Origin: Patescibacteria group bacterium
GTDB lineage: Bacteria; Patescibacteriota; Dojkabacteria; JAKAPS01
Assembly (NCBI GenBank): GCA_025450075.1
Contig: JANWIC010000007.1
Span: 39,289 to 103,288 of the forward strand
Direction: 5' to 3'
DNA length: 64,000 nt
Shown here: positions 1,051 through 60,801 of the stretch, in pieces
Layout: the number at the start of each line of letters is the position of its first letter
Position numbering within the stretch: position 1 is the first letter of the stretch
The notes under the pieces: generated by a model
What the model was told of the DNA's origin: nothing
The model's database searches: none
What the model saw: the letters and a program-made list of their open reading frames with translations, nothing else
Translations under genes and position numbers: made by a program

Positions 1051-1072
1051 AACAGTGATGCTTATCACTGTT
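1051..1072. promoter_or_regulatory. 22-bp perfect palindrome aacaGTGATgcttATCACtgtt (FNR/CRP-type TGAT-N4-ATCA core)
   Basis: The 9-bp arms 1051-1059 and 1064-1072 are exact reverse complements. It sits ~145 bp upstream of the cytochrome b-like ORF and next to a Crp/Fnr-family gene. Confidence 0.5.
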
Positions 1073-1214
1073 CATTTTACCAAATAATAATACAACTTTC
1101 GTAAATCGCACTTCTTCAAAAAGTCTGATGAGATTTTGTTGGTTTACCGACTATACCTTATTTCTGATTTATGTGAGTGACAACTATCACTGATGGATAG
1201 CTAGCATTCTATTA

Positions 1215-2657
1215 TTGTTAAGCTATACTTTTTTCAATTTTATGAATGAGCAAGAAAAACCTGAATCTTTTCTCATTATTTTAAGTAAAACTATGATAGA
1301 AAAAGTTCCCTCTTATGGGAACAAATTTTTTTATTCCTTAGGTTTTTTGTCAATGATCTCTTTTGTGATATTGATCATCACTGGATGTATCATGGCATTT
1401 GAAGGATCTACATGGTGGCTCACATCGACACTTGGGATATATACGAGAAGTGTGCACATGTGGGCAACGCAGGCATTTGTTATTTTTATGCTTTTGCATT
1501 TACTTATTGTTTTTCTAACATCAGGCTTTAAAAAACCCAGACAATTAACGTGGGTATTGGGAGGATTAATGTTTTTCTTTGTATTACTTGAAGCAGAGTT
1601 TGGATATGTATTACGAGGGGATTTCTCTGCGCAATGGAGAAGTTTACAGGGTGCTGATTTATATAATGGAAGCGGAATAGGTCAGTTTATTAATAATCTG
1701 AATAATATGCAGATTATTGGCATTCATGCTGTCCTCATTCCATTGATTATTATTAGCCTGTTATTCTTCCATTATCTTTTAGTCAAATCAAGAGGTATAG
1801 CTGCACCTTACATAAAAGATGTGCAATATACTGTCGTAAAGGCGGATCATACAATCCTTTTTATCCGCGGTGGTGTTCTTGCAGGAGTTATATTACTGCT
1901 TGCAATATTTTTTAAATCTCCATTTATCGCAGCAACCACCATTCAAGATGTTGCGACACAAGATCCTACTCTTCTAGCAAAAACACTCATTTCCGAGATG
2001 GATCAAAGTTCTGATACTGCTATATATCTGGATAATATAGATCCGTATACTTTTAACACGAAACAGGTATTTATTGAAGATCCATATATGCAATATATCA
2101 AGTTATATAATTCACCGAATATGCTATCAGCATTTGATAGTCAGGATTCTCGTGTGAAACTACTGGAACTGCAGGAAGCAAAGGACTACTTTGCTACGAA
2201 TACTGATTATACATCTCTTCCATATTCAGCGAATCCGGTAGTTCCAGTGGTTACCACACTGGTTCGAATGGCACAAACTGGGCTTTATGAAGCGAGCTTA
2301 AGACAATCTCTTGAAAATGGTTCAAATGGGACATATGTAACACGTTTCTTGGCAGATACTGGGGTATTGCAGGATAAGGCAACAAACCTTTACCTTACTA
2401 CAGACCAGTATGGCATGGTGAGAGATGAGTCAGGAGGAACTTTGCCTCCAGGAGCTTGGTGGTTAACTCCATTAGGTTTTCTGGATCACACGCTCCTTTC
2501 TACTGATCCTAATCAGGATAGAGATGGAGCAATCATTATTGGAACATTCATTCTTCTTTTATTGGCGTTTCCATATATTCCTTTCTTTAATAGACTTCCT
2601 GAACTATTTAGGATTGACCGCCTGATTTGGAAAGAGAAAAATGCGAAGTCTTCATGA
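1215..2657 (+). CDS. cytochrome b6-like membrane protein fused to a ~270-aa extracytoplasmic domain plus a C-terminal TM
   Basis: Two His pairs sit in TM helices (HMWATQAFVIFMLLH with 14 spacing; HAVLIPLIIISLLFFH with 15 spacing, as in b6). RQLTWVLGGLMFFFVLLEAEFGYVLRGDFSAQW matches the cyt b RELNW..G..L......AF.GY.LPW motif. The true start may be an internal Met. Confidence 0.55.
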   Translation: MLSYTFFNFMNEQEKPESFLIILSKTMIEKVPSYGNKFFYSLGFLSMISFVILIITGCIMAFEGSTWWLTSTLGIYTRSVHMWATQAFVIFMLLHLLIVFLTSGFKKPRQLTWVLGGLMFFFVLLEAEFGYVLRGDFSAQWRSLQGADLYNGSGIGQFINNLNNMQIIGIHAVLIPLIIISLLFFHYLLVKSRGIAAPYIKDVQYTVVKADHTILFIRGGVLAGVILLLAIFFKSPFIAATTIQDVATQDPTLLAKTLISEMDQSSDTAIYLDNIDPYTFNTKQVFIEDPYMQYIKLYNSPNMLSAFDSQDSRVKLLELQEAKDYFATNTDYTSLPYSANPVVPVVTTLVRMAQTGLYEASLRQSLENGSNGTYVTRFLADTGVLQDKATNLYLTTDQYGMVRDESGGTLPPGAWWLTPLGFLDHTLLSTDPNQDRDGAIIIGTFILLLLAFPYIPFFNRLPELFRIDRLIWKEKNAKSS

Positions 2658-2680
2658 TGAGTATCTGATATAATGGAAGT

Positions 2681-3553
2681 ATGAGTAATACGAGACTTCT
2701 TTCTGTCCATACTTCTGACGACTTGTATCTTAATGGGATACTCTCAGAACCTGATCATGGAAGTAGGACTATCATAATCCATACTCACGGCATGCAGGGA
2801 GATCTCTTCTCTCATATGCAGCTTTATGTGAGTAAATATCCAGAATATGGAGTTGCATTCTTATCAGGAGAGAATAGAGGTGCAAATATAATAAGGCGTT
2901 TTGATACAAGTACTGATGGGAAGATAATTGGCGGTGCATATGAGATTTTTGAAGAATGTGTATATGATATTGCTTCTTGGGTAGATGAGGCAGAAGAATT
3001 AGGATATGCAAATATCTGGATATCTTCACACAGTCTTTCTCCTGCTAAAATAGCATATTATCTCTATACAACAAAAGATCCAAGAGTAAAGGGAGTTATA
3101 TTCCTCAGTCCATCTGATAATGTGGGACTTGTAAAAGACCCGATTGGTGCAGCTGACCATGCTATCTGCTTTCCAGAAGCATTGCAACTTATTCAGCAAG
3201 GGAAACCACAGCAACTTCTTACACATCTTTTATGGGGAGATAAGATGCTTTCTGCTAGAACTTATTTAAACCTTTTTAGCGATGAATCTGCAGCAAATGT
3301 CTTCCACTATTATGATCCTTCCCGAAGTTGGGAAGTTGTAGAAAGTATCCGTGTTCCTGTCATAGCTTTCAGTGGATCAGAAGATGATGGGATTTTACCC
3401 GTCATTGATCCACAAAAGGGGTTAGAAATGCTAAAAAATCATCTCTTAAAATCTCCTCATGTTGCAACACATGTATTTGAAAATGCCACACATTCATTTG
3501 CCGGATTTGAAGAAGAAATCATCAATCTTTGTGTTTCCTTTATTAATTCCTAA
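2681..3553 (+). CDS. alpha/beta-hydrolase fold protein
   Basis: Nucleophile-elbow-like ISSHSLSP, with later Asp/His candidates (SGSEDDG, ATHSFAG). It lies 24 nt after the cyt b-like gene. Confidence 0.5.
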   Translation: MSNTRLLSVHTSDDLYLNGILSEPDHGSRTIIIHTHGMQGDLFSHMQLYVSKYPEYGVAFLSGENRGANIIRRFDTSTDGKIIGGAYEIFEECVYDIASWVDEAEELGYANIWISSHSLSPAKIAYYLYTTKDPRVKGVIFLSPSDNVGLVKDPIGAADHAICFPEALQLIQQGKPQQLLTHLLWGDKMLSARTYLNLFSDESAANVFHYYDPSRSWEVVESIRVPVIAFSGSEDDGILPVIDPQKGLEMLKNHLLKSPHVATHVFENATHSFAGFEEEIINLCVSFINS

Positions 3554-4679: not shown

Positions 4680-5798
4680 ATGGACACCACCTCATTGGAA
4701 AAACATGTTGAAGAGATTATCGGATTAGATGAGCTCAAAACATATCTGGCTGCCCATAAAACACTCCAACACTATATTGGCTTTGAAATATCAGGACTTG
4801 TCCACCTTGGTACAGGATTAATGACAGGAATAGTAGTTCGAGAACTTCAGAAGCTTGGAGTCAATACCTCATACTTCCTTGCAGATTGGCATACATGGAT
4901 TAATAACAAGCTAGGTGGAGATATGGATTTCATAAATAAAGTGTCACATGAATACTTCGGTCCTGCATTAAAAATTTCTGCAAAAATTGCAGGTGCAAAT
5001 GAATCAAAAATTGAACTGAAGTACGGAAGTGAACTTTATCATAATAACGATGATTACTGGAAAAGTATCATTGATATAAGCAAGAATTTAACATTATCGC
5101 GGGTTCTCAAATCAACTATGATTATGGGAAGAAAGGAAAGTGATTCAATGCAATTTAGCTTTCTCATTTATCCCCCTATGCAGGTAGCAGATATTTACGA
5201 AATGCAAGTAAATATAGCTCATGCAGGTATGGACCAAAGAAAAGTCCATGTTATAGCTCGAGAAGTTGCAGAGAAACTGGAGATCTCACCTCTAAAAGAT
5301 GATGGAGGGAAGAATATAAAGCCGGTTGCTGTGCATCATCGCCTCCTATTAGGACTTCAAAAACCATCAACTTGGCCGATTCCTGAAGGAGTAGAGAAAG
5401 ATTTTATCCGCACTGAAATGAAGATGAGCAAATCAATACCTGGTTCAGCTATATTTATTCATGATACTGAAGAAGAAATTAGAAGCAAAATCAAGAAAGC
5501 ATTTTGTCCTGAAAAAGAAACAGAAGTTAATCCTGTCCTCAATTGGGCCAAAAATATCATCTTCCCCATTGTTGGTGAATTGAGAGTAAATCGTGAAGAA
5601 AAGTATGGTGAAAGCTTTACGGCGAAATCATACGAAGAGCTGGAGGAGAGATATGCATCAGGAGAACTTTTTTCACTAGATTTGAAAAATGCTGTTGCAG
5701 ATATACTTGTGGATATGCTTACTCCTGCAAGAGAATACTTTTCCCAAGACAACCTTCCGGAACTTATTCAACAAATTAGAGATAGTCAGACAAGATAA
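4680..5798 (+). CDS. tyrS: tyrosyl-tRNA synthetase, archaeal/eukaryal-type (class Ic)
   Basis: GFEISGLVHLGTG (HIGH-region variant, cf. archaeal GFEPSGKIHLGH). YPPMQVADI...GMDQRKVHVIAREV, KMSKS, EIRSKIKKAFCP, SYEELEERY and LDLKNAVAD align along the whole length with archaeal TyrRS. It is not the bacterial TyrS/TyrZ type. Confidence 0.8.
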   Translation: MDTTSLEKHVEEIIGLDELKTYLAAHKTLQHYIGFEISGLVHLGTGLMTGIVVRELQKLGVNTSYFLADWHTWINNKLGGDMDFINKVSHEYFGPALKISAKIAGANESKIELKYGSELYHNNDDYWKSIIDISKNLTLSRVLKSTMIMGRKESDSMQFSFLIYPPMQVADIYEMQVNIAHAGMDQRKVHVIAREVAEKLEISPLKDDGGKNIKPVAVHHRLLLGLQKPSTWPIPEGVEKDFIRTEMKMSKSIPGSAIFIHDTEEEIRSKIKKAFCPEKETEVNPVLNWAKNIIFPIVGELRVNREEKYGESFTAKSYEELEERYASGELFSLDLKNAVADILVDMLTPAREYFSQDNLPELIQQIRDSQTR

Positions 5799-5812: not shown

Positions 5813-6892
5813 TTGAGGTCAGCCATAAAGTATGATAGAATCTTGATACTTTTTTGTATTAATGTGGAACATGACCGATTATCTTTTGCTTATTCCGAAA
5901 CATTTCCTGAAAGTTTGCTGCCTCTTTTTGAAACTAATGAATGTGAACTTGCAGAAGAACTGCTTTGTGAACTTCATGCATGGGGCGTTTATACTAGAAC
6001 TAAACTTAATAAAAGATATCTAAAATCAGGCATTATCAGTCCTAATAGGGACATAGCTAGGCAAGCAATTGAAAGAGGAAATGAAATATTTTCAGTATTA
6101 AATAAAACTCCTCTTTTAGTAGATACTAATCCAGAACAAGAACTTGCCATTCGGGTAACCGCCTTTGAAAAGATTCTTTGGCTGTTAGTTCCTGATGAGA
6201 TAAGAAAGATTCTGGAAAAAACAAGTGAAAGAATTGCAAAGGTAATACCGATGGGATTTGGAATTGCTTTGATTGGTGGAACGGGGTTTGGAGCGGTATA
6301 TGAAAGGATGCTGATGGGGCTGAATATAAAGAATGGAGATGTTGATATTAAGCATTTCGAAGATGATATTCTCCCGCCTCGTTTACAAATGATGATAAAT
6401 AATATTATTCAAGATGAATTAAGAAGTAATTCTCTTGGTATGCGCTTATGTTCACACTTTAATGGAAATAATAGGGGAGAGAATAATCTTACACATGAAG
6501 TAGATCCTATTAATCAATTGGAATATGATGTCTTTTTTAATTTGTCTTTTCCACAAGATATTAATCAAAGAAATAGAGAAGCAATTTTTAAAAGGCTTAG
6601 TTATTTTGCAAGAACCGATAGGGAACGTTGGATTAGGCTAATAGAAACGATAATGATTAGAATAACAAAAAATCCTATTGAATCAAAATATATTTCTCCA
6701 TGGTTAGCTATTCCTCTTCAACATGACCCAGTTGTCCATATTTCAAGGTTACGTATTTATCAACTTAATTTTGATATTTCAGAACAAGAGCTATTACGTG
6801 TCGCGCACATTGCAAAACTTGGGAAGAAACTTTATCAACTCCTCATACTTCGAATGCTACTTGCGACTGGAGTCCAGGAAGAAATTGCTTAA
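5813..6892 (+). CDS. hypothetical protein (359 aa; start uncertain)
   Basis: Long ORF; no recognisable motif. Confidence 0.4.
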   Translation: MRSAIKYDRILILFCINVEHDRLSFAYSETFPESLLPLFETNECELAEELLCELHAWGVYTRTKLNKRYLKSGIISPNRDIARQAIERGNEIFSVLNKTPLLVDTNPEQELAIRVTAFEKILWLLVPDEIRKILEKTSERIAKVIPMGFGIALIGGTGFGAVYERMLMGLNIKNGDVDIKHFEDDILPPRLQMMINNIIQDELRSNSLGMRLCSHFNGNNRGENNLTHEVDPINQLEYDVFFNLSFPQDINQRNREAIFKRLSYFARTDRERWIRLIETIMIRITKNPIESKYISPWLAIPLQHDPVVHISRLRIYQLNFDISEQELLRVAHIAKLGKKLYQLLILRMLLATGVQEEIA

Positions 6893-7242
6893 AGGCTGCT
6901 TTGATCTTGGATATATTGCATAATTTGCTTTGGTGTCATGTTGTAGTTCAGATGATTCATGATCCAGATTGATGCGACAATGACAACTACTACTGCTCCG
7001 AATGTAGATATAAAGAAGACAACATTCCACCGGGGAGCTGGCTCTTGTCCTAAATGGAGAAAGAATACAAGTTGCACAAATAATTGGATAAGTGCAATTA
7101 TTAAAATAATTGGTAGAAGAATTTCATGAGGGATTTGTTCATGATATGAATTAACATGAATCAAGACAAGGATATATGCGAGAAATGTTAAAATCAAAGA
7201 GAGTATAAAACCTGCAATGTATGTTTTAAGTGTTTTTGTCAT
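6889..7242 (-). CDS. cyoD: quinol oxidase subunit IV (CyoD/QoxD-like)
   Basis: ~117-aa, 3-TM protein. Its ATG overlaps the cyoC stop (ATGA). It is last in the oxidase operon. Confidence 0.6.
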   Translation of the reverse strand: MTKTLKTYIAGFILSLILTFLAYILVLIHVNSYHEQIPHEILLPIILIIALIQLFVQLVFFLHLGQEPAPRWNVVFFISTFGAVVVVIVASIWIMNHLNYNMTPKQIMQYIQDQSSL

Positions 7243-7808
7243 AGCGCGACTCCCATAAGATAGACAATTGTAAAGATAAAAATCCAAACAATATCAAGAA
7301 AATGCCAGAATAAACTCATCAAGGTAATTTTTCGTATTCCTCCTTGTGTCAATCCCTTTTTCAAGATGAAAATGATTAAAATAAGCATCCATAATAGTCC
7401 TGCTGTAATATGCAGCCCATGTGTTCCGACTAAGGCAAAATATGATGACAAGAAAGCGCTTTTTTGATATGTATGTCCTTCTGAAAATAAATGAGAAAAT
7501 TCATACAATTCCATTCCTAAAAACCCAGCTCCAAGAAGAAAAGTTGTACATAACATCGCTATTACTCCTTTTAATTTCTTCTCATGAGCAAGAAGCAATG
7601 CTACTCCGCAGGTAAAACTACTTGTCAAAAGGAAAAGTGTTTCTACAAGGACAAATGGCATATTAAAAATTTGCGAACCTCCAACTCCTCCAAAAGTATT
7701 ATTCCGTAATACAATAAATGCAGCAAAAAGTCCTGCAAACATTAACAAGTCTGTCATTAAGTATATCCAGAAACCTAAAAATGTTTTTTCGTTTTTTTCT
7801 TCATGCAT
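7239..7808 (-). CDS. cyoC: heme-copper quinol oxidase subunit III
   Basis: 189-aa polytopic protein directly downstream of subunit I, with a subunit-III-like hydrophobic profile. Confidence 0.65.
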   Translation of the reverse strand: MHEEKNEKTFLGFWIYLMTDLLMFAGLFAAFIVLRNNTFGGVGGSQIFNMPFVLVETLFLLTSSFTCGVALLLAHEKKLKGVIAMLCTTFLLGAGFLGMELYEFSHLFSEGHTYQKSAFLSSYFALVGTHGLHITAGLLWMLILIIFILKKGLTQGGIRKITLMSLFWHFLDIVWIFIFTIVYLMGVAL

Positions 7809-9789
7809 ATATGTGGTCCTTTCTTTCCTGTTCTAATTTTGCAATTTCTTGAGCAGTTAATATATATTCAGTTTCTTCATCAAAAGCCCTGATGATGAGG
7901 CATACCATCATTCCCACAAATCCTATACCTGCGATCAGAAACATATGCCATACCATTGCAAATCCAAATAATAGAGCAAATCCTGCAAGATAGATCCCAA
8001 ACGGTGTATTTTTTGGTAATTCAAAATCTTTGTATTCCACATTTGCAGGCTGCGGATTTTCTTTCATTTCTTTTTTCATCTCCCAGAAAGCATCTCTGCC
8101 ATGAACTTCAGGAATTACTGCATAGTTATAAAAGGGAGGAGGGGAAGATGTTGCCCATTCAAGGTTTCTGGCATCCCATGGGTCACCTGACAAGTCCATA
8201 TTTTGTTTTCTATTTTTTATACTAATGATGATTTGTAGGATTTGGGTAGTTACTCCTGCAAGTATTACCATAAATCCAAGAACCGATATGATAAACAATG
8301 GTTGCCAGGCTGGATTTGTATAATGGTCAAGCCGTCTCGTTGCACCCATATATCCGAGAATATATAACGGGATAAAGGCAAGGAAAAAACCGGTAAGCCA
8401 GAACCAGAAAGCAGTCTTCCCTAATTTTTCATTCAGTTTAAATCCCATAAACTTTGGGAACCAGTATGTAATCCCTGCGAACAATCCGAATAATGCACCT
8501 CCAACAATCATGGTATGGAAATGTGCGACAAGAAATAGTGAGTTATGTAATTGATAATCTGCAGTAGGAGATGCTAGCAAGACTCCTGCAATACCTCCGA
8601 ATGTAAAAGTTGCTACAAACCCTAAGAACCAGTAGAGCGAAGATGACAACACAATCCTTCCCCGATACATCGTTGATAACCAATTAAAGATCTGGACTCC
8701 GGTAGGGATAGCGATAATCATAGTTGAAATACCAAAGATTGCATTCACATCTGCTCCTGCTCCCATGGTAAAGAAATGATGAAGCCATACCATTAATGAA
8801 AGAATAGTTACAAAAATTGCTGCAAGAACTTGTGAGGTATATCCGGCAAGTTTTTTGTGACTAAATGTTGATACGACTTCAGAAAATATACCAAAAGAGG
8901 GGAGTACTAAAATATATACTTCCGGATGTCCCCACATCCAAATGAGGTTAATATACATCATCGGATTTCCGCCATTTGTGGTAGTAAAAAAATGCATTCC
9001 TAAATATCGATCAAGAGTTAACATGGCAATGGTTATTGCAAGAATTGGAAAAACAGTTACAACAAGAATACTGCTGCATAGAGTTGTCCATACAAAAAGT
9101 GGCATTCGCATCAAGGTCATGCCAGGTGCGCGCATCTTTAATATGGTTACAAGAAAGTTTAATCCAGCAAGCAAGCTTCCAAGTCCTGATACTTGTAAAC
9201 TCCATATCCAGTAATCAACTCCTACTCCAGGGCTAAATTGCAATTCTGATAATGGCGCTTGAGCAAGCCAACCGGTTGCAGCAAAATCTCCTCCAAATAC
9301 AAAGAACATATTAATGAGGATGGCACCTGCGACATAGAGCCAGAAACCAAGCGTGTTTAGAAAAGGAAATGCCAAATCACGTGCACCGATTTGTAACGGA
9401 ACAACAAGATTCATTAGTCCAACTAATAATCCCATGGTTGCAAAAAATACCATAATATCCCCATGAGCAGTAAATATTTGCTGGAAATGATCTGCACTTA
9501 AGTAACCTGTTGACGATCCCACGGAAAGTGCCTGTTGCATCCAAATCATGATTGCATCTAAAGCTCCTCGAAAAAGCATAAGAAGCGCAACAATGATATA
9601 CATAATTCCGATTCTCTTTGGGTCAGTTGAAGTAAGCCATTCATTCCATAGCCATTTCCACCGCTTTGTATACGTTAATACTGCAGCAGCTACAGCTCCC
9701 ATCAGCATGAGGGTAAGTGTTCCCCCGATGGTATACCATACATGTGGTAGAGAGTTCCAGGTTAATTTACCGAATAGTAAGTTCCACAT
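7801..9789 (-). CDS. cyoB: heme-copper oxidase subunit I
   Basis: WGHPEVYILVLP motif, His ligands (HHFFTMG, HFHT...) and 662 aa with 12+ TM helices. Confidence 0.9.
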   Translation of the reverse strand: MWNLLFGKLTWNSLPHVWYTIGGTLTLMLMGAVAAAVLTYTKRWKWLWNEWLTSTDPKRIGIMYIIVALLMLFRGALDAIMIWMQQALSVGSSTGYLSADHFQQIFTAHGDIMVFFATMGLLVGLMNLVVPLQIGARDLAFPFLNTLGFWLYVAGAILINMFFVFGGDFAATGWLAQAPLSELQFSPGVGVDYWIWSLQVSGLGSLLAGLNFLVTILKMRAPGMTLMRMPLFVWTTLCSSILVVTVFPILAITIAMLTLDRYLGMHFFTTTNGGNPMMYINLIWMWGHPEVYILVLPSFGIFSEVVSTFSHKKLAGYTSQVLAAIFVTILSLMVWLHHFFTMGAGADVNAIFGISTMIIAIPTGVQIFNWLSTMYRGRIVLSSSLYWFLGFVATFTFGGIAGVLLASPTADYQLHNSLFLVAHFHTMIVGGALFGLFAGITYWFPKFMGFKLNEKLGKTAFWFWLTGFFLAFIPLYILGYMGATRRLDHYTNPAWQPLFIISVLGFMVILAGVTTQILQIIISIKNRKQNMDLSGDPWDARNLEWATSSPPPFYNYAVIPEVHGRDAFWEMKKEMKENPQPANVEYKDFELPKNTPFGIYLAGFALLFGFAMVWHMFLIAGIGFVGMMVCLIIRAFDEETEYILTAQEIAKLEQERKDHIYA

Positions 9790-9790
9790 A

Positions 9791-10675
9791 TTACATTTGG
9801 CTCATATATATTGTGTTCCCGTTTGACATATATTTTGCAACAATCGAATTAAACAGGTTCTTGTTTGGTTGGGAGAATTCTTTTCCTTGGTTATTTGTAC
9901 TTGGCTCTACAAGTTTGTTATACCCATTCGTATCTAACATGTTAGCTGATTGATTAATTGATTGTACCCATTGAGAATATTCCTTATTCGATGTCGCTTT
10001 CACTGTAAAATTCATTCCTGAAAATCCTTCACCACTCATTTCAGCTGCACCACCAGGATAGTCTCCGGGTTTATTTGCCATGAGATGTATCTGAGTAACC
10101 ATTCCTGTCATTGCATAAATTTGACCTCCAAGGCTTGGGATCCAGAATGAATTCATCGGTGCATTATCTGCCGTAAGTTGGAAATCTATTGGAGTATTTG
10201 CAGGTATTTCTAAATAGTTAACTGTTGCTATATTTTCCTGGGGATATATGAAAAGCCATTTCCAACGAAGAGCAACAACCTCAATCTCAATAGGTTTTGA
10301 TTGAGCAATAATTGGGTTATATGGGTCATATGCATGTGCAGATTGCCAACCGATGATTGCCCACACAAAGATAATACATGCAGGAATACTCCACCATGCT
10401 GTTGTAAGCTTTTTACCTGCACTCCATTCAGGAGTATAGGCTTGGTTATTTCCTTCCTGATATCGAAATACAATAAATAATGTGAATAATATTAACGGGA
10501 TACCGATACAAAAAGCTAAAACAAGAGCCATGACAAGAAGTGTGCTTTGACCTTGTGCGACATATCCTTGAGGGTTAAGTAACTGGAGATTCCCGTTACG
10601 GGCAAGTATAACAAAAAGAGTTGCAATTGAAAGTGCATCAATAAGGAAGATAACGGTTTTTGCTTTATGTTTCAT
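9791..10675 (-). CDS. cyoA: quinol oxidase subunit II (CuA ligands lost)
   Basis: Subunit II fold with a cupredoxin C-terminal domain. The CuA site reads AEMSGEGFSGM (Cys->Ala/Ser, His->Phe), as in CyoA/QoxA quinol oxidases. Confidence 0.8.
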   Translation of the reverse strand: MKHKAKTVIFLIDALSIATLFVILARNGNLQLLNPQGYVAQGQSTLLVMALVLAFCIGIPLILFTLFIVFRYQEGNNQAYTPEWSAGKKLTTAWWSIPACIIFVWAIIGWQSAHAYDPYNPIIAQSKPIEIEVVALRWKWLFIYPQENIATVNYLEIPANTPIDFQLTADNAPMNSFWIPSLGGQIYAMTGMVTQIHLMANKPGDYPGGAAEMSGEGFSGMNFTVKATSNKEYSQWVQSINQSANMLDTNGYNKLVEPSTNNQGKEFSQPNKNLFNSIVAKYMSNGNTIYMSQM

Positions 10676-15990: not shown

Positions 15991-17505
15991 CTAAAGTCCA
16001 GCGAAATAATCTTTTTTTATGTGTTTTTTCGGTATTCCCATTGTTAGAAGAAAATCCTGCGCACCGCTTACCATTGCTGTAGGACCAGAGATGTAATAAA
16101 TCCTATCCAAATAATCTGGAACTTCGGCTTGAATCATTTGTGAGTTAATCCTCCCTTTATTCCCCGGCCATCCTTGTGGAATAACTGATGTGTCAGTAAG
16201 CGTATAGATGGTTTTGATGCCAAGCTTCTGTTTTGCTTCTTTAAGCACATCAGTATAGGCAATTTCCTCAGCAGTTTTATTTGTATAAAATACAACAATA
16301 TCTCTTTTCTGGTTAGTATCAATAAGATATTTCAACATACTACGAAATGGAGTAATGCCGATACCACCAGCGATAAAGACTAATTTTTGATTTTTGTTTC
16401 TTGGCAAGGTAAAATCTCCTGAGATTTGTGAACCGACAATAACTGATCCTCTATCAAGTTGGCTCATCGCTTTTTTGTAACTGCTCCCGATACCATAAAA
16501 TTTAACTCCCAATCTGATATAATCTTCTGTTGGAGATGATGCTATGGTAAAAAATCTCCTGTTTCCTCTTGAATCATGGCCATCAGGTGGAAGTGTCCAT
16601 TCCATATACTGGCCGGGTTTGAATGAAACATTCTTATGAATATCCAAAAGAAAATCCATTCTATTCGGTGTTGTTTGGATTTTCTCTTTCACTATGGCAA
16701 AAATCTTATGTTTCGGACTAATGAGATATGAAAAAGCATTCCCTATAACAAGAGCAAGTTCCGGAGTTGTATAAAAACCCACAATATGAAATTCTGGCAC
16801 AAATAAGAACCCAACAAATGCTCCATAGAGAGATTGTAAAGTTTTTGTTGGAGGTGTTGTAAGTGGCTCCGTAAGCATGACAAATGCAAAGAAAAAGATC
16901 GAAGATGCAAAAATAGTATCATGTAAAGCTGAAAGGATATTTTGTCCGCTTAATAAGCTGAATACTATTAGACTTACAAAGGCACTTAAAAAAAAGTAGT
17001 ATACAAGGTCAAATCTTCTAATCCTTCTGACAATAAACACTCCAAGAAGGAGAAAAGGAAGCATTGATGCAGTCCCAATCCACCAGCTTGCAGACCCATT
17101 GAATGCATATGCTGTTAATACTACAGCAATTGCGACTGGATTAAAGATATGTTTTTTGTTAATCGCAAGAATAAATTTCGTTGCCATGGATAATATCCCT
17201 GCCCATATAAAAAGAGGGAAATCGGCAGCGCTTTTAATTGGTGTTAAAATCAGGGCTAAAATCAATGCGGTAATATATACTGATTCTGCATTCACCGGAA
17301 CCTGGAATACGTTTGCAAATATTACATTCGTAATAAGCGAAACACTCAAAAGGACAAGGACTGAGATACCAAGGGAAACAAGACTAAATGGCAGTATTCC
17401 CAAGATAGAATATATTCCCGCAATAATTAGAAGTAGGATGAGGAAATATAGTACCAAACGATACATGGTAATTGAGTTCAAAATTTCATCTATTTTTTTT
17501 AACAT
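15991..17505 (-). CDS. membrane-anchored FAD/NAD(P)-binding oxidoreductase (FNR-like C-terminal domain, ~8 TM at the N-terminus)
   Basis: RFFTIASS (RxYS-type FAD motif) and GGIGITPF (NAD(P) site) in the C-terminal 230 aa. The N-terminal half is polytopic with few His, so it is not a bis-heme ferric-reductase type. Confidence 0.65.
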   Translation of the reverse strand: MLKKIDEILNSITMYRLVLYFLILLLIIAGIYSILGILPFSLVSLGISVLVLLSVSLITNVIFANVFQVPVNAESVYITALILALILTPIKSAADFPLFIWAGILSMATKFILAINKKHIFNPVAIAVVLTAYAFNGSASWWIGTASMLPFLLLGVFIVRRIRRFDLVYYFFLSAFVSLIVFSLLSGQNILSALHDTIFASSIFFFAFVMLTEPLTTPPTKTLQSLYGAFVGFLFVPEFHIVGFYTTPELALVIGNAFSYLISPKHKIFAIVKEKIQTTPNRMDFLLDIHKNVSFKPGQYMEWTLPPDGHDSRGNRRFFTIASSPTEDYIRLGVKFYGIGSSYKKAMSQLDRGSVIVGSQISGDFTLPRNKNQKLVFIAGGIGITPFRSMLKYLIDTNQKRDIVVFYTNKTAEEIAYTDVLKEAKQKLGIKTIYTLTDTSVIPQGWPGNKGRINSQMIQAEVPDYLDRIYYISGPTAMVSGAQDFLLTMGIPKKHIKKDYFAGL

Positions 17506-17507
17506 AT

Positions 17508-18044
17508 TTATTGTGCTTTACTTAATGCATCTTGCAAGGATTGTATGAATGCCTGGCTGGAATCAGTTGCTCCAGAGACAATGTCGACATTTGCACTTTG
17601 AGCTTGAATAGCTTCTTGGGCTAAAATCGGATCGGCTTGTGAGTTTATATAAACTGATGTGGATCGGTCATTTGGCGCTTGCAAAAATGATATATTCGAA
17701 ATTTTTCCGTTTTTTACTGTTGTCTGGACTTGAATAATGCCATAAAATGCATCAGCTTGAGAACCTGTATACACACCATCTTTATACTTTCCAGAAGGAG
17801 TTGGAGTAGGTGTTGGAGTCGAAGTTGGTGTATCAGTTCCTGACTGTATCGATGTATCTGTTGGAGTTGGACTAGGAGATAGGCTTGGTGTTGTTGTCTG
17901 GGATGGAGAAGGTGATGGGACAATCTTTTGAGCGATTAATGCTGGTTGTCCAAGTCCGCTGTTTCTTGCAAAAACAGAGTAGATGAGAAACATTGTTATT
18001 ACACTTCCTGATAATAGTAGTTTTTTTCCCATAATATTATACAT
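17508..18044 (-). CDS. FMN-binding domain protein (NqrC/RnfG-like FMN_bind) with a signal/TM and a Pro/Ser/Thr-rich linker
   Basis: DIVSGATDSSQAF matches the flavinylation motif (S/T-G-A-T-x-S-S). Long PSPSPSQTTTPSLSPSPTPT... linker. Confidence 0.7.
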   Translation of the reverse strand: MYNIMGKKLLLSGSVITMFLIYSVFARNSGLGQPALIAQKIVPSPSPSQTTTPSLSPSPTPTDTSIQSGTDTPTSTPTPTPTPSGKYKDGVYTGSQADAFYGIIQVQTTVKNGKISNISFLQAPNDRSTSVYINSQADPILAQEAIQAQSANVDIVSGATDSSQAFIQSLQDALSKAQ

Positions 18045-18790
18045 TACAAATGTACAAATGATTGAAAATTGGAGGTATAGGTTGCTATCCCTTCCTTATC
18101 AACCATATATCCCTCATATCCTTCAAGATTTTCAATAAATATGATACCATCTTTTCCCATGGCAAATGCTGCAGTTGCAAACCTGTCTGCTTCATAAATA
18201 TTTGGACCAATAACACTTAAGCTGACTATATCAGTTATGTCACAATCTCTATCTTTTGGGTTGTATATATGGTTTCCTCTAAAATATGTGCCGGATGTTG
18301 CAATAGCAGTATCATGTAAAGTGATTTTTTTGATGATCTCATCCCTTTTAAAAGGATTCCTAATCCCGACTATCCATTCCTCATCGTTTTCATTTTTCCC
18401 TGACACTTGGATATCTCCTCCCGCTTCTATATAGAAGTTGTGGAATCCTTTGGAATGTAACTTTTTAGCTACTTCAAAAATTGCCCATCCTTTTACGAGT
18501 CCCGCTGGCTCTAAACTTCCATCTTTTCTATGTATATCAAAAAATCCATTAGTAGCAAGTCTGGTTTGTTCGCATAAAGTAAGAATATTACGCATTTCAC
18601 TGCTGTAATAGTCTTCTTTTTCTTCCCCTTTATTAATTTTGCTTATTTCACTATCTTCTTTGTAGGTGCTGAAGCGATTATCTATCTTATGGAAATATGA
18701 AAATATTTCATTGAAAATATTCTCATCAGTTTTACTATCAAGTATTTCAATTGTAATGGGAAGACCCATGATCCATTCTGTTTTTTTCAT
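18044..18790 (-). CDS. apbE: ApbE-family FAD:protein FMN transferase (short form, no signal peptide detected)
   Basis: MGLPITIEI start, IEAGGDIQVSG, ATSGTYFR and VIGPNIYEADRFATAAF motifs. Start and stop overlap the flanking FMN-bind genes. Confidence 0.7.
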   Translation of the reverse strand: MKKTEWIMGLPITIEILDSKTDENIFNEIFSYFHKIDNRFSTYKEDSEISKINKGEEKEDYYSSEMRNILTLCEQTRLATNGFFDIHRKDGSLEPAGLVKGWAIFEVAKKLHSKGFHNFYIEAGGDIQVSGKNENDEEWIVGIRNPFKRDEIIKKITLHDTAIATSGTYFRGNHIYNPKDRDCDITDIVSLSVIGPNIYEADRFATAAFAMGKDGIIFIENLEGYEGYMVDKEGIATYTSNFQSFVHL

Positions 18791-19227
18791 TATTTTGCTT
18801 GTTGTAATGCAATTTGGAGTGATGCAGCAAATGCCTGGCTGGATGCTGTTGCTCCTGAAACTATATCAACATTCGGACTCTGAGCTTGAATTGCTTCCTG
18901 AGCAAGATTAGGATCAGCTATAGTATTAATGGCAACTGACCGAATAGCTTCATTTGGTGCTTGAAGGAAAGATACATTTGCTATTTTACCATTTTTGATT
19001 GTTGATTGTACTTGGATTATCCCATAAAAAGCATTCTCGGCAGAACCTGTATAGACTCCATCTTTATATGGTGGAGAAAGAGAACTGGTTCTGGCTGCCT
19101 GAGCATTTGAATTGTTCGAGAAGAAACTATGATTAGCTAACATGACTAAAAATATTCTTCCCTGATCTTGATACAGAACTGCTCCAAAACTTAAGAGTAT
19201 TGCAAGTATAGTAAGAATCTTTTTCAT
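18790..19227 (-). CDS. FMN-binding domain protein (paralog of 17508..18044)
   Basis: DIVSGATASSQAF. The C-terminal ~100 aa is ~70% identical to the downstream paralog. It has an N-terminal signal/TM. Confidence 0.7.
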   Translation of the reverse strand: MKKILTILAILLSFGAVLYQDQGRIFLVMLANHSFFSNNSNAQAARTSSLSPPYKDGVYTGSAENAFYGIIQVQSTIKNGKIANVSFLQAPNEAIRSVAINTIADPNLAQEAIQAQSPNVDIVSGATASSQAFAASLQIALQQAK

Positions 19228-25620: not shown

Positions 25621-26045
25621 TGGTGGAGATGGGGGGAGTCGAACCCCCGTACAAGACAAAAGAACAGATATAGTACTACAAGCTTACTTAGCTTCGTTTT
25701 TTTACATTCAGATCCTCAAAGCTAAGAAAAAAGATCATGAAAGGATATAATTAAGTACATATCAAGTTGCTATATCAGACAGCATGACATATACCTGACT
25801 GTTTTTTTGCCCTACTATTCCCATCAGGCGAGGTTTAGTAAAACACCAGCGATCTAATTTAGATATATGCTGGAGTATAAGCTGGAGCTCTGAAGAAATT
25901 AACTACAGAAGCTACTGTTGCCTGTACTTTTTGACTGAATGTGTTTGCATTTATGTCATTGGTACGTTTTTTTACGAAGTTATTACCATAATCTTCGGCT
26001 TGCTATATAAGCCCTATTTACCCTGGCGAAACCAAATACATCCCC
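25621..26045 (-). ncRNA. ssrA: tmRNA (ssrA)
   Basis: 5' GGGGATGTATTTGGTTTCGCCAGGG (cf. conserved GGGG...GGAUUCGACGGG). 3' GGGGGTTCGACTCCCCC-CATCTCC-A-CCA. The acceptor has a G3:U70 (Ala identity) pair and an encoded CCA. A candidate tag ORF starts GCA AAC (A N...). Confidence 0.75.
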
Positions 26046-60728: not shown

Positions 60729-60801
60729 TCCAAGGGGTAGGAGTTGAACCTACTTAAACTGGTTTTACAGACCAGCGCATCAACCGTTCTGCCACCCTTG
60801 G
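60729..60801 (-). tRNA. tRNA-Tyr (anticodon GUA), class I (short variable loop) with a C1:G72 pair and A73
   Basis: Reverse complement is CCAAGGG-TG-GCA-GAACGGTTGA-TGC-G-CTGGT-CTGTAAA-ACCAG-TTTAA-GTAGG-TTCAACT-CCTAC-CCCTTGG-A. All stems pair. U33 is present and the anticodon is GTA. Confidence 0.75.

Follow-up and report, generated by a model that had tools for sequence, protein, structure and literature searches.

In the cytochrome b6f complex and in the bc complexes of Firmicutes, a short b-type cytochrome (PetB or the short QcrB) forms a four-helix bundle with bis-His pairs at 14- and 15-residue spacing, and it is accompanied by a second module (PetD, or subunit IV, in b6f) that opens with a transmembrane (TM) helix leading back to the outer side and is found in both split and fused versions. 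Other b-type cytochromes work apart from such complexes. The b6-type cytochromes of the ExtP/Cbc type are independent of a Rieske protein and link the quinone pool to carriers on the outer side of the membrane, and CybB of Escherichia coli is a stand-alone di-heme cytochrome that acts as a superoxide:ubiquinone oxidoreductase. Here we describe the gene of a cytochrome b6-like fusion protein on a 64,000-nucleotide stretch of DNA from a Patescibacteria group bacterium (Dojkabacteria, lineage JAKAPS01; assembly GCA_025450075.1, contig JANWIC010000007.1, positions 39,289 to 103,288 of the forward strand). The whole of this stretch is referred to below as the window.

Bacteria of the Candidate Phyla Radiation (CPR; also called Patescibacteria) have been described as lacking electron-transport chains save for a horizontally acquired quinol oxidase, and the quinol supply of that oxidase is an open question. 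The conserved family to which the window protein belongs, with its two predicted hemes, is a candidate part of such a chain. As a general model we tentatively propose that the protein is a self-contained, Rieske-independent transmembrane electron wire linked to the quinone pool. Its origin is best explained by the fusion of a short b6-type cytochrome to a two-helix partner subunit. The scaffold is already known and the family is present in databases, while the Rieske-less architecture, the outer domain, the split and fused history, the CRP-type box and the putative role in a CPR chain are undescribed. No discussion of the protein was found in the available literature on CPR respiration, which treats the cyo operon, NDH-2 and the like, or in a survey of extracytosolic flavinylation considered below.

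A predicted di-heme core of the cytochrome b6 type

The gene lies within an open reading frame (ORF) of 480 residues that runs from a TTG codon (1215..2657, forward strand). The identical protein in the database (P0001) is taken from the ATG at 1242, which gives 471 residues, and residue numbering throughout follows this shorter form. An earlier note on this DNA had recognised a b-type cytochrome signature in the first ~200 residues, with two His pairs at 14- and 15-residue spacing and an RQLTW motif, and each of these observations was confirmed. Searches with hidden Markov models (HMMs) of the cytochrome b N-terminal domain gave 51.9 bits for PF13631 (gathering cut-off 27) and 40.2 bits for PF00033 (cut-off 27.2), with residues 37-236 covered. 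A profile built from 120 homologues matched cytochrome b6 (7r0w_I, E=2.7e-23) in the PDB over profile positions 10-188, and the same profile found no PDB match past position 188. The His pairs H72/H86 (i, i+14) and H162/H177 (i, i+15) align with the b6 heme ligands of helices B and D (hemes bp and bn), and their spacings are of the b6 type and not of the bc1 type. All four His are invariant in the 120 homologues, where they belong to a set of ~70 invariant columns. The RQLTW...LEAEFGYVLRGDFSAQW motif is present in the window protein and is nearly invariant across the family.

The AlphaFold2 (AF2) model of the full protein has a pLDDT of 85.1 and a pTM of 0.83. In a Foldseek comparison, its predicted helical bundle superposes on the solved structure of cytochrome b6 (4ogq_A) with a root-mean-square deviation of 2.6 Å over 182 columns (27% identity). 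By HMM matches, His positions and fold, the window protein belongs to the superfamily of the cytochrome b/b6 N-terminal domain. By homology, two b hemes would be bound, one near each face of the membrane.

Comparison with b6, bc1 and other b-type cytochromes

The cytoplasmic-side segments of the protein align without gaps to spinach b6 at 38-70% identity (the spinach b6 sequence, like the spinach PetD and bovine cytochrome b sequences used below, is consistent with PDB alignments). These segments are VPxxxNxFYxLG before helix A, GFKKPRxLTW in the connection of helices B-C, and RxxGIxxP past helix D. In contrast, identity to spinach b6 is only 8-11% in the AB and cd loops of the outer side, with 25-42% gaps. 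Compared with b6, the cd loop is short by 11 residues and polar (GYVLRGDFSSQWRSLQGAD), and its invariant residues R125, D127, R133, Q136 and D139 stand where b6 has the hydrophobic helix of the Qo site. From the conserved cytoplasmic segments and the divergent outer loops, the cytoplasmic quinone-reduction (Qn/Qi) side looks preserved, whereas the quinol-oxidation (Qo) and Rieske-docking side looks replaced. The FYSLGF segment of the window protein aligns to FYCLGG of b6, and superfamily-wide the position in question is Ser or Thr in most of the aligned members and Cys in none. As the Cys of the CxGG motif is absent, no heme cn is expected.

The layout had been called non-standard for bc1 or b6f in the earlier note, and the comparison bears this out: there are six TM helices, no PF00032 domain, no detectable homology to PetD or its PEWY motif, and no heme-cn Cys. 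The likeness to PetB/PetD of b6f and to the short Firmicute QcrB comprises the four-helix bundle, the bis-His spacing, the motifs shared on the cytoplasmic side, and a second module that opens with a TM helix back to the outer side and occurs in split and fused versions. The differences from b6f and the Firmicute bc complexes are the missing heme-cn Cys, the shortened AB and cd loops, and the lack of a Rieske protein and of cytochrome f or c. Subunit IV has three helices with PEWY, while the partner module here consists of two TM helices and a 200-residue outer domain. The score with the NCBIfam model of cytochrome b6 (PRK03735) was 66.5 bits, short of the cut-off of 325.

The best whole-chain Foldseek matches were to the long cytochrome b of bc1/bcc complexes (actinobacterial QcrB, PDB 9ftz and 7q21) with E ~1e-8 and TM-scores of 0.38-0.42. 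Helix E comes after the heme bundle in both, but the long cytochrome b has eight or more TM helices against six here, where PF00032 and PEWY are also missing. The NCBIfam QcrB model gave 38.8 bits (cut-off 500). Geobacter ExtP (NF040969) was the best NCBIfam match with E=1.4e-19, but at 70.7 bits against a cut-off of 290. Proteins of the ExtP/Cbc type, which belong to clusters for extracellular electron transfer, are short, are partnered with multiheme c-type cytochromes and have no outer domain, whereas no c-type cytochrome was found here. The prokaryotic cytochrome b561 family that includes CybB (PF01292) gave 19 bits, below its cut-off of 30.1. The window protein is outside every characterised complex family tested.

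Topology and the outer domain

Hydropathy and the AF2 model indicate six TM helices, namely A-D, E (203-223) and F (425-445). Helix E is preceded by a conserved cytoplasmic-side motif, VKANHxxLFxRG. The predicted inner loops and tails together have 15 Lys and Arg residues, compared with 2 in the short outer loops, and by this distribution the N-terminus is inside and the large domain outside. The order proposed in the earlier note (a fifth TM helix, a soluble domain and a final TM helix) stood, whereas the soluble domain is ~200 and not ~220 residues long. This domain is net acidic, with 24 Asp and Glu residues against 12 Lys and Arg. It contains no Cys and no invariant His or Met, so that a conventional heme, iron–sulfur or copper site is not apparent. 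Its invariant motifs are SDT-x2-Y...PY and, just before helix F, PPGAWWL (2445-2465). The latter recalls PEWY in position only and is kept as a resemblance.

The "novel partner domain" of the earlier note was an apt description, because the outer domain has no relative in Pfam or the PDB. Pfam searches with the C-terminal halves of 16 members found no family even at E<=10, PF00032 included. When the outer domain was modelled alone and compared with the PDB by Foldseek, no solved fold was retrieved (best E=0.78). A reading of the C-terminal half as a divergent subunit IV or cytochrome b C-terminal domain was rejected, as hhalign comparisons with spinach PetD and bovine cytochrome b matched nothing past helix D. 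The segment SSDTAT of the outer domain was likewise rejected as a flavinylation site; it does not fit Dxx[ST]GA[ST], and its final Thr is Ile in the window protein.

Family distribution, split and fused forms

Full-length homologues form >500 clusters of 445-480 residues with 54-61% identity, and where the databases name them the name is "cytochrome b N-terminal domain-containing protein". Genome surveys list the family only under "cytochrome b domain protein" or "partial complex III". In one-genome-per-species data they occur in Saccharimonadia and in Levyi-, Davies-, Doudna-, Berkel-, Adler- and Parcubacteria. The fused gene is also carried by six actinobacterial loci (L045, L047, L054, L063, L075 and L081) of 65-70% G+C that are labelled Propionibacteriaceae or Actinomycetes, and their products are 54-55% identical to the CPR protein. 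In a neighbor-joining tree, which carries no support values, the six actinobacterial copies make up one clade nested within Saccharimonadia sequences. This nesting suggests that the gene has moved between epibionts and the phylum of their hosts.

A profile built from the last 282 residues retrieved 136 representatives, among them a distant fused form, which is very common in Ktedonobacteraceae, and stand-alone homologues of the outer-domain half (316-347 residues), which Sulfobacillus, Alicyclobacillus, Thermaerobacter and related bacteria encode. A b6-like gene of 204-219 residues precedes the stand-alone gene in Sulfobacillus thermosulfidooxidans and in an Alicyclobacillus, and its end is overlapped by the latter gene. 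Homologues of the C-terminal part thus extend across four phyla, and the split gene pairs of Firmicutes mark the CPR protein as the product of fusing a two-gene module. The four His, the shortened loops and the motifs A-x-Y...PY, PG-x2-W and P-x-IP-x-LN-x-LP...IW[KR] are retained in every form. Strong constraint acts on the family, which is conserved across the four phyla. The split and fused forms parallel the history of b6 and subunit IV and bear on the modular assembly of bc complexes. For bioenergetics, the family also offers a natural example of a b6-type core that works independently of Rieske and carries a new module on the outer side.

Sequences from Saccharibacteria, the Patescibacteria group and Ktedonobacteria have been added to "subfamily G" of cytochrome b (Dibrova et al., 2017; PMC5600118). 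These are the same three taxa as in the present family, and the additions are probably the same proteins, an identity that is unconfirmed; that study is silent on the outer domain and on the missing subunit IV and Rieske protein.

In a metagenomic protein of 982 residues (P0121), helix F is followed by an extra TM segment and a beta-propeller-like extension of ~500 residues with weak PQQ_2 matches. This single case may represent either an outer-side partner fused to the protein or an artefact of assembly, and the extension is unrelated to a 501-residue gene product encoded downstream in locus L003. The Ktedonobacteria copies are preceded by an overlapping ORF of 68-73 residues (L086:7783-8004 and L087:7798-8004).

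CRP-type boxes at the gene start

Three sequences of the CRP type (GTGAT-N4-ATCAC) were found at the cytochrome b gene, and they are the only matches with <=1 mismatch in the window (Table 1). The first is a perfect inverted repeat. At the starts of homologous genes, CRP-type boxes occur at 0.58 per kb compared with 0.040 per kb elsewhere, a 14-fold enrichment that involves 22/82 loci; those with an upstream box include L007, L011, L033, L043, L044, L056, L057 and L059. Further boxes of this type lie in front of the RnfD-NqrF gene in L042 and L056 and, in L006, of an operon of cupredoxin, DUF420 and cytochrome b genes. In the window, no CRP-type box was found upstream of the cyo or the NQR-like operon. 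FNR-type boxes (TTGAT-N4-ATCAA) were rejected as candidates because they are not enriched (91 matches against 98 expected).

A short ORF for a Crp/Fnr-family regulator lies upstream of the boxes and is the candidate for their binding. Compared with the NtcA and Fnr profiles the first ~60 residues of the cNMP-binding domain are missing, and it may be truncated, frameshifted or a short variant. A Crp-family gene is found within 10 kb of the cytochrome b gene in 9 loci. From the enrichment of boxes at gene starts and the neighbouring Crp-family ORF, control of the cytochrome b gene by a CRP/FNR-type regulator appears to be conserved. Together with the homologues in cultivable Sulfobacillus, Alicyclobacillus and Ktedonobacter, the box makes the system experimentally tractable.

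Table 1 Features of the window and their coordinates.
Feature	Position	Strand	Evidence or remark
Crp/Fnr-family regulator ORF, 151 aa	194..649	+	HTH_Crp_2 9.9e-15
CRP-type box, perfect inverted repeat AACAGTGAT-GCTT-ATCACTGTT (GTGAT-N4-ATCAC)	1051..1072		~175 nt upstream of the ATG
Second CRP-type box GTGACAACTATCAC	1177..1190		1 mismatch
Cytochrome b6-like fusion protein gene, 471 aa	1242..2657	+	longest ORF from TTG 1215
b6-type four-helix (A-D) di-heme domain, residues 1-189	1242..1808	+	Pfam, PDB profile match, Foldseek, invariant columns
Third CRP-type box	1365-1378		inside the 5' end of the cytochrome b gene
Codon of His ligand H72	1455-1457	+	
Codon of His ligand H86	1497-1499	+	
Codon of His ligand H162	1725-1727	+	
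Codon of His ligand H177	1770-1772	+	
TM helix E, residues 203-223	1848..1910	+	AF2 secondary structure, hydropathy, alignment
Extracytoplasmic domain, acidic, all-helical, residues 224-424 (201 residues)	1911..2513	+	model, no Pfam
TM helix F (425-445) and basic cytoplasmic tail	2514..2654	+	conserved tail motif P-x-IP-x-LN-x-LP...IW[KR]
290-aa ORF, weakly alpha/beta-hydrolase-like	2681..3553	+	starts 23 nt past the cytochrome b stop
ORF, 240 aa	3716-4438	-	no Pfam or NCBIfam match
Archaeal-type tyrosyl-tRNA synthetase	4680-5798	+	NF006330 1.2e-115
ORF, 359 aa	5813-6892	+	no Pfam or NCBIfam match
cyoDCBA quinol oxidase operon	6889..10675	-	NCBIfam CyoA-D; ~4 kb from the cytochrome b gene
ORF, 362 aa	11650-12738	+	no Pfam or NCBIfam match
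ORF, 411 aa	14738-15973	+	no Pfam or NCBIfam match
NQR/RNF-like flavinylation cluster: FMN_bind, ApbE, second FMN_bind, RnfD-like/NAD-binding fusion	15991..19227	-	Pfam
tmRNA gene	25621-26045	-	Rfam 125 bits
ORF, 789 aa	58304-60673	-	no Pfam match
tRNA-Tyr, 73 nt	60729-60801	-	

Gene neighbourhood

For the genomic context, the ORFs of 83 related loci and of the first 22 kb of the window were clustered; locus counts from this sample are not phylogenetically independent. Immediate neighbours on the same strand are mostly unique to each locus, in Ktedonobacteria and Firmicutes as well. The absence of an adjacent Rieske or cytochrome c gene, pointed out in the earlier note, extends to the whole window, in which scans found no ORF with a Rieske motif (CxH...CxxH) and no credible cytochrome c ORF (CxxCH). 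Neither a Rieske protein nor a c-type cytochrome is a recurrent neighbour among the 83 related loci. A Rieske ORF is present in two of them (L045 and L081, both actinobacterial) and absent from the other 81. L045 is the only related locus with an adjacent Rieske gene: it encodes a small Rieske [2Fe-2S] protein with a lipoprotein-type signal peptide (L045:3088-3573, PF00355 3e-13) 164 nt downstream of cytochrome b, while the Rieske gene of L081 (9880-10302) is 7.6 kb away. The description of the protein as stand-alone agrees with this rarity and with the locus-specific neighbours.

The earlier note had also paired the gene with an alpha/beta-hydrolase. The next ORF does follow closely downstream, but its identity as a hydrolase is weakly supported (Hydrolase_4 E=1.6e-3, DLH E=7.6e-3, PDB MHETase E=5.5e-3). 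No homologue occurs in any of the 83 related loci, so that the hydrolase was rejected as a functional partner and the ORF is regarded as an incidental neighbour.

Among the recurrent neighbours, all loosely placed, are P-type ATPases (13 loci), regulators of the Crp/Fnr family (9 loci) and an NDH-2-type flavoprotein (7 loci). The cupredoxin-DUF420-cytochrome b operon mentioned above belongs to a Levyibacteriota genome (L003/L006), with the cupredoxin gene at L003:5636-6148. Genes for Usp, ferritin/Dps, sigma factors and HSP20 surround the Ktedonobacteria copies at L086 and L087, and an HSP20 gene also lies by the CPR copy in L001.

The window carries a cyo operon close to the cytochrome b gene. 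Its CyoA lacks the CuA cysteines, which identifies the oxidase as a quinol oxidase. Operons of this kind are known as horizontally acquired in CPR bacteria of soil and freshwater.

An NQR/RNF-like flavinylation cluster lies further along and is complete, with ApbE, secreted FMN_bind proteins bearing DxxSGAT, and an NqrB/RnfD-like domain fused to an NqrF-type NAD-binding domain. Both proteins with the flavin mononucleotide (FMN)-binding domain, encoded at 17508..18044 and 18790..19227, have signal anchors and DIVSGAT flavinylation motifs and are predicted to be secreted. Clusters of this kind also occur in 15 other loci, drawn from several CPR classes, within ~10 kb of the cytochrome b gene. 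In L034, L043, L052 and L053 the FMN_bind, ApbE and RnfD-NqrF genes directly follow the cytochrome b gene in that order, and in L017 an FMN_bind gene lies 44 nt downstream of the cytochrome b gene. Placement directly downstream is seen in at least two clades. Meheust et al. (2021, eLife; PMC8238504) reported the cluster chiefly from Actinobacteria and CPR and described it as carrying electrons one way, from NAD(P)H to outer FMN, with just one of the two electron paths of NQR. The range of the NQR/RNF-like system (Actinobacteria and CPR) overlaps that of the cytochrome b family, although the linkage is loose and cytochrome b is not a described component. No mention of cytochrome b was found in the main text of that survey and the supplements examined.

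Proposed mechanism and alternative explanations

The b6-like motifs of the cytoplasmic side and the genomic context point to a putative interaction with quinol or quinone, as the earlier note had surmised. In the proposed mechanism, electrons would cross the membrane between the quinone pool, at a site on the cytoplasmic side, and, at the capped outer face, a redox partner or a substrate. With neither the high-potential Rieske acceptor nor the Qo determinants present, no bifurcating Q cycle would operate. The protein would share the quinone pool with the cyoABCD quinol oxidase and either feed or drain it. Expression would be under a Crp/Fnr-type regulator acting through the GTGAT-N4-ATCAC boxes. 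The most likely partners on the outer side would be the secreted, covalently flavinylated FMN-binding proteins of the NQR/RNF-like cluster, and in some lineages a cupredoxin or a Rieske lipoprotein may take this part.

Several observations weigh against this mechanism. No partner gene is consistently adjacent, FMN_bind is immediately downstream in only 5/82 loci, and the tight adjacency belongs largely to one clade. In the window itself, the NQR-like cluster is 13 kb from the cytochrome b gene and lacks the CRP-type box. The outer domain shows no recognisable docking or cofactor motif. Furthermore, CPR bacteria have been reported to be without quinone biosynthesis (PMC6031116), so that the availability of a quinone pool is itself presumed.

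A more specific alternative is that the protein provides the return path of the NQR/RNF-like system, with electrons passing from NAD(P)H through the RnfD/NqrF-like fusion, the secreted FMN proteins, heme bp and heme bn to quinone. The parts together would make a modular NADH:quinone oxidoreductase supplying cyoABCD. We regard this explanation as unlikely. It accords with the direct gene order in four loci, the downstream FMN_bind gene in L017 and the clusters in the 15 other loci, as well as with the secretion signals and DIVSGAT motifs of the FMN proteins and the CRP-type box before the RnfD-NqrF gene in L042 and L056. The overlapping phyletic ranges and the presence of one of the two NQR electron paths in the cluster fit as well. 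On the other hand, most loci are unlinked, and the examined Firmicute, Ktedonobacteria and actinobacterial loci have no adjacent cluster (one Ktedonobacteria locus has ApbE 6 kb away). The silence of the flavinylation survey on cytochrome b also tells against it. It is rather improbable that the family, fused in CPR, Actinobacteria and Ktedonobacteria and split in acidophilic Firmicutes, constitutes an unrecognised class of respiratory module, in which a b6-type di-heme core has given up the Rieske/Qo machinery for a new outer domain and serves as a heme-based return path coupling secreted half-NQR flavoproteins to the quinone pool. If it did, then together with cyoABCD it would amount to a minimal chain from NAD(P)H to O2 in bacteria held at present to be without complexes I and III.

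In four phyla the gene stands essentially as a monocistronic unit, which would suit an autonomous quinone reductase for stress or oxidant handling in the manner of CybB. In such an enzyme, heme bp would take electrons from superoxide or a small reductant on the outer side, and the quinone pool would receive them back. The stress genes near some copies (HSP20 in L001 and L086; Usp, ferritin/Dps and sigma factors in Ktedonobacteria; an AhpC/thioredoxin-type gene in L003), the Crp/Fnr-type control suggested by the boxes, and the occurrence of the family in lineages that also carry O2-linked genes are consistent with this idea. The protein is not homologous to CybB, however, as the sub-threshold PF01292 score indicates, and the net acidic outer domain is unfavourable for attracting superoxide. 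This explanation is accordingly doubtful.

We consider it very unlikely that the protein serves as cytochrome b subunit in a genuine Rieske/cytochrome b complex, with the genes for the Rieske and acceptor subunits at other places in the genome. Linkage of Rieske to cytochrome b genes is not obligatory (Dibrova et al., 2017; PMC5600118), the Rieske genes of L045 and L081 lie downstream of or near a family member, and Saccharimonadia are scored as having a "partial complex III" in genome surveys (2026 review; PMC13293708). Yet a Rieske ORF is lacking in 81/83 related loci and in the window, the cd loop is short and polar, and PEWY, PF00032 and helices G/H are absent. The 200-residue domain, moreover, occupies the face on which the Rieske head would dock. 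The oxidase of the window is a quinol oxidase and no cytochrome c is encoded there, which leaves a cytochrome c-reducing complex without an evident acceptor here.

That the gene is a relic, in decay, of a bc complex since lost, or that its product is a structural membrane protein with no redox role, would suit the reduced CPR genomes, generally without respiratory complexes, but is highly improbable for an intact ORF with 54-61% full-length identity across CPR classes, ~70 invariant columns that include the four His, conservation in four phyla that include free-living bacteria with large genomes, and a conserved upstream regulatory box.

Other features of the window

Five further ORFs, which encode 240 to 789 residues, have no Pfam match, and an NCBIfam scan of all but the longest of them likewise found none (Table 1). 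The tmRNA gene stands just before a PilO-like gene and the block of rpoBC and ribosomal-protein genes, which is wholly on the forward strand. The end of its predicted tag, ...APAYTPAYI, is unusually long. The window also encodes a tyrosyl-tRNA synthetase of the archaeal type. The tRNA-Tyr has a short variable arm, a C1-G72 pair and A73, which is archaeal tRNA-Tyr identity in a bacterium; such identity in CPR has already been reported (Mukai et al., 2017; PMC5370408).

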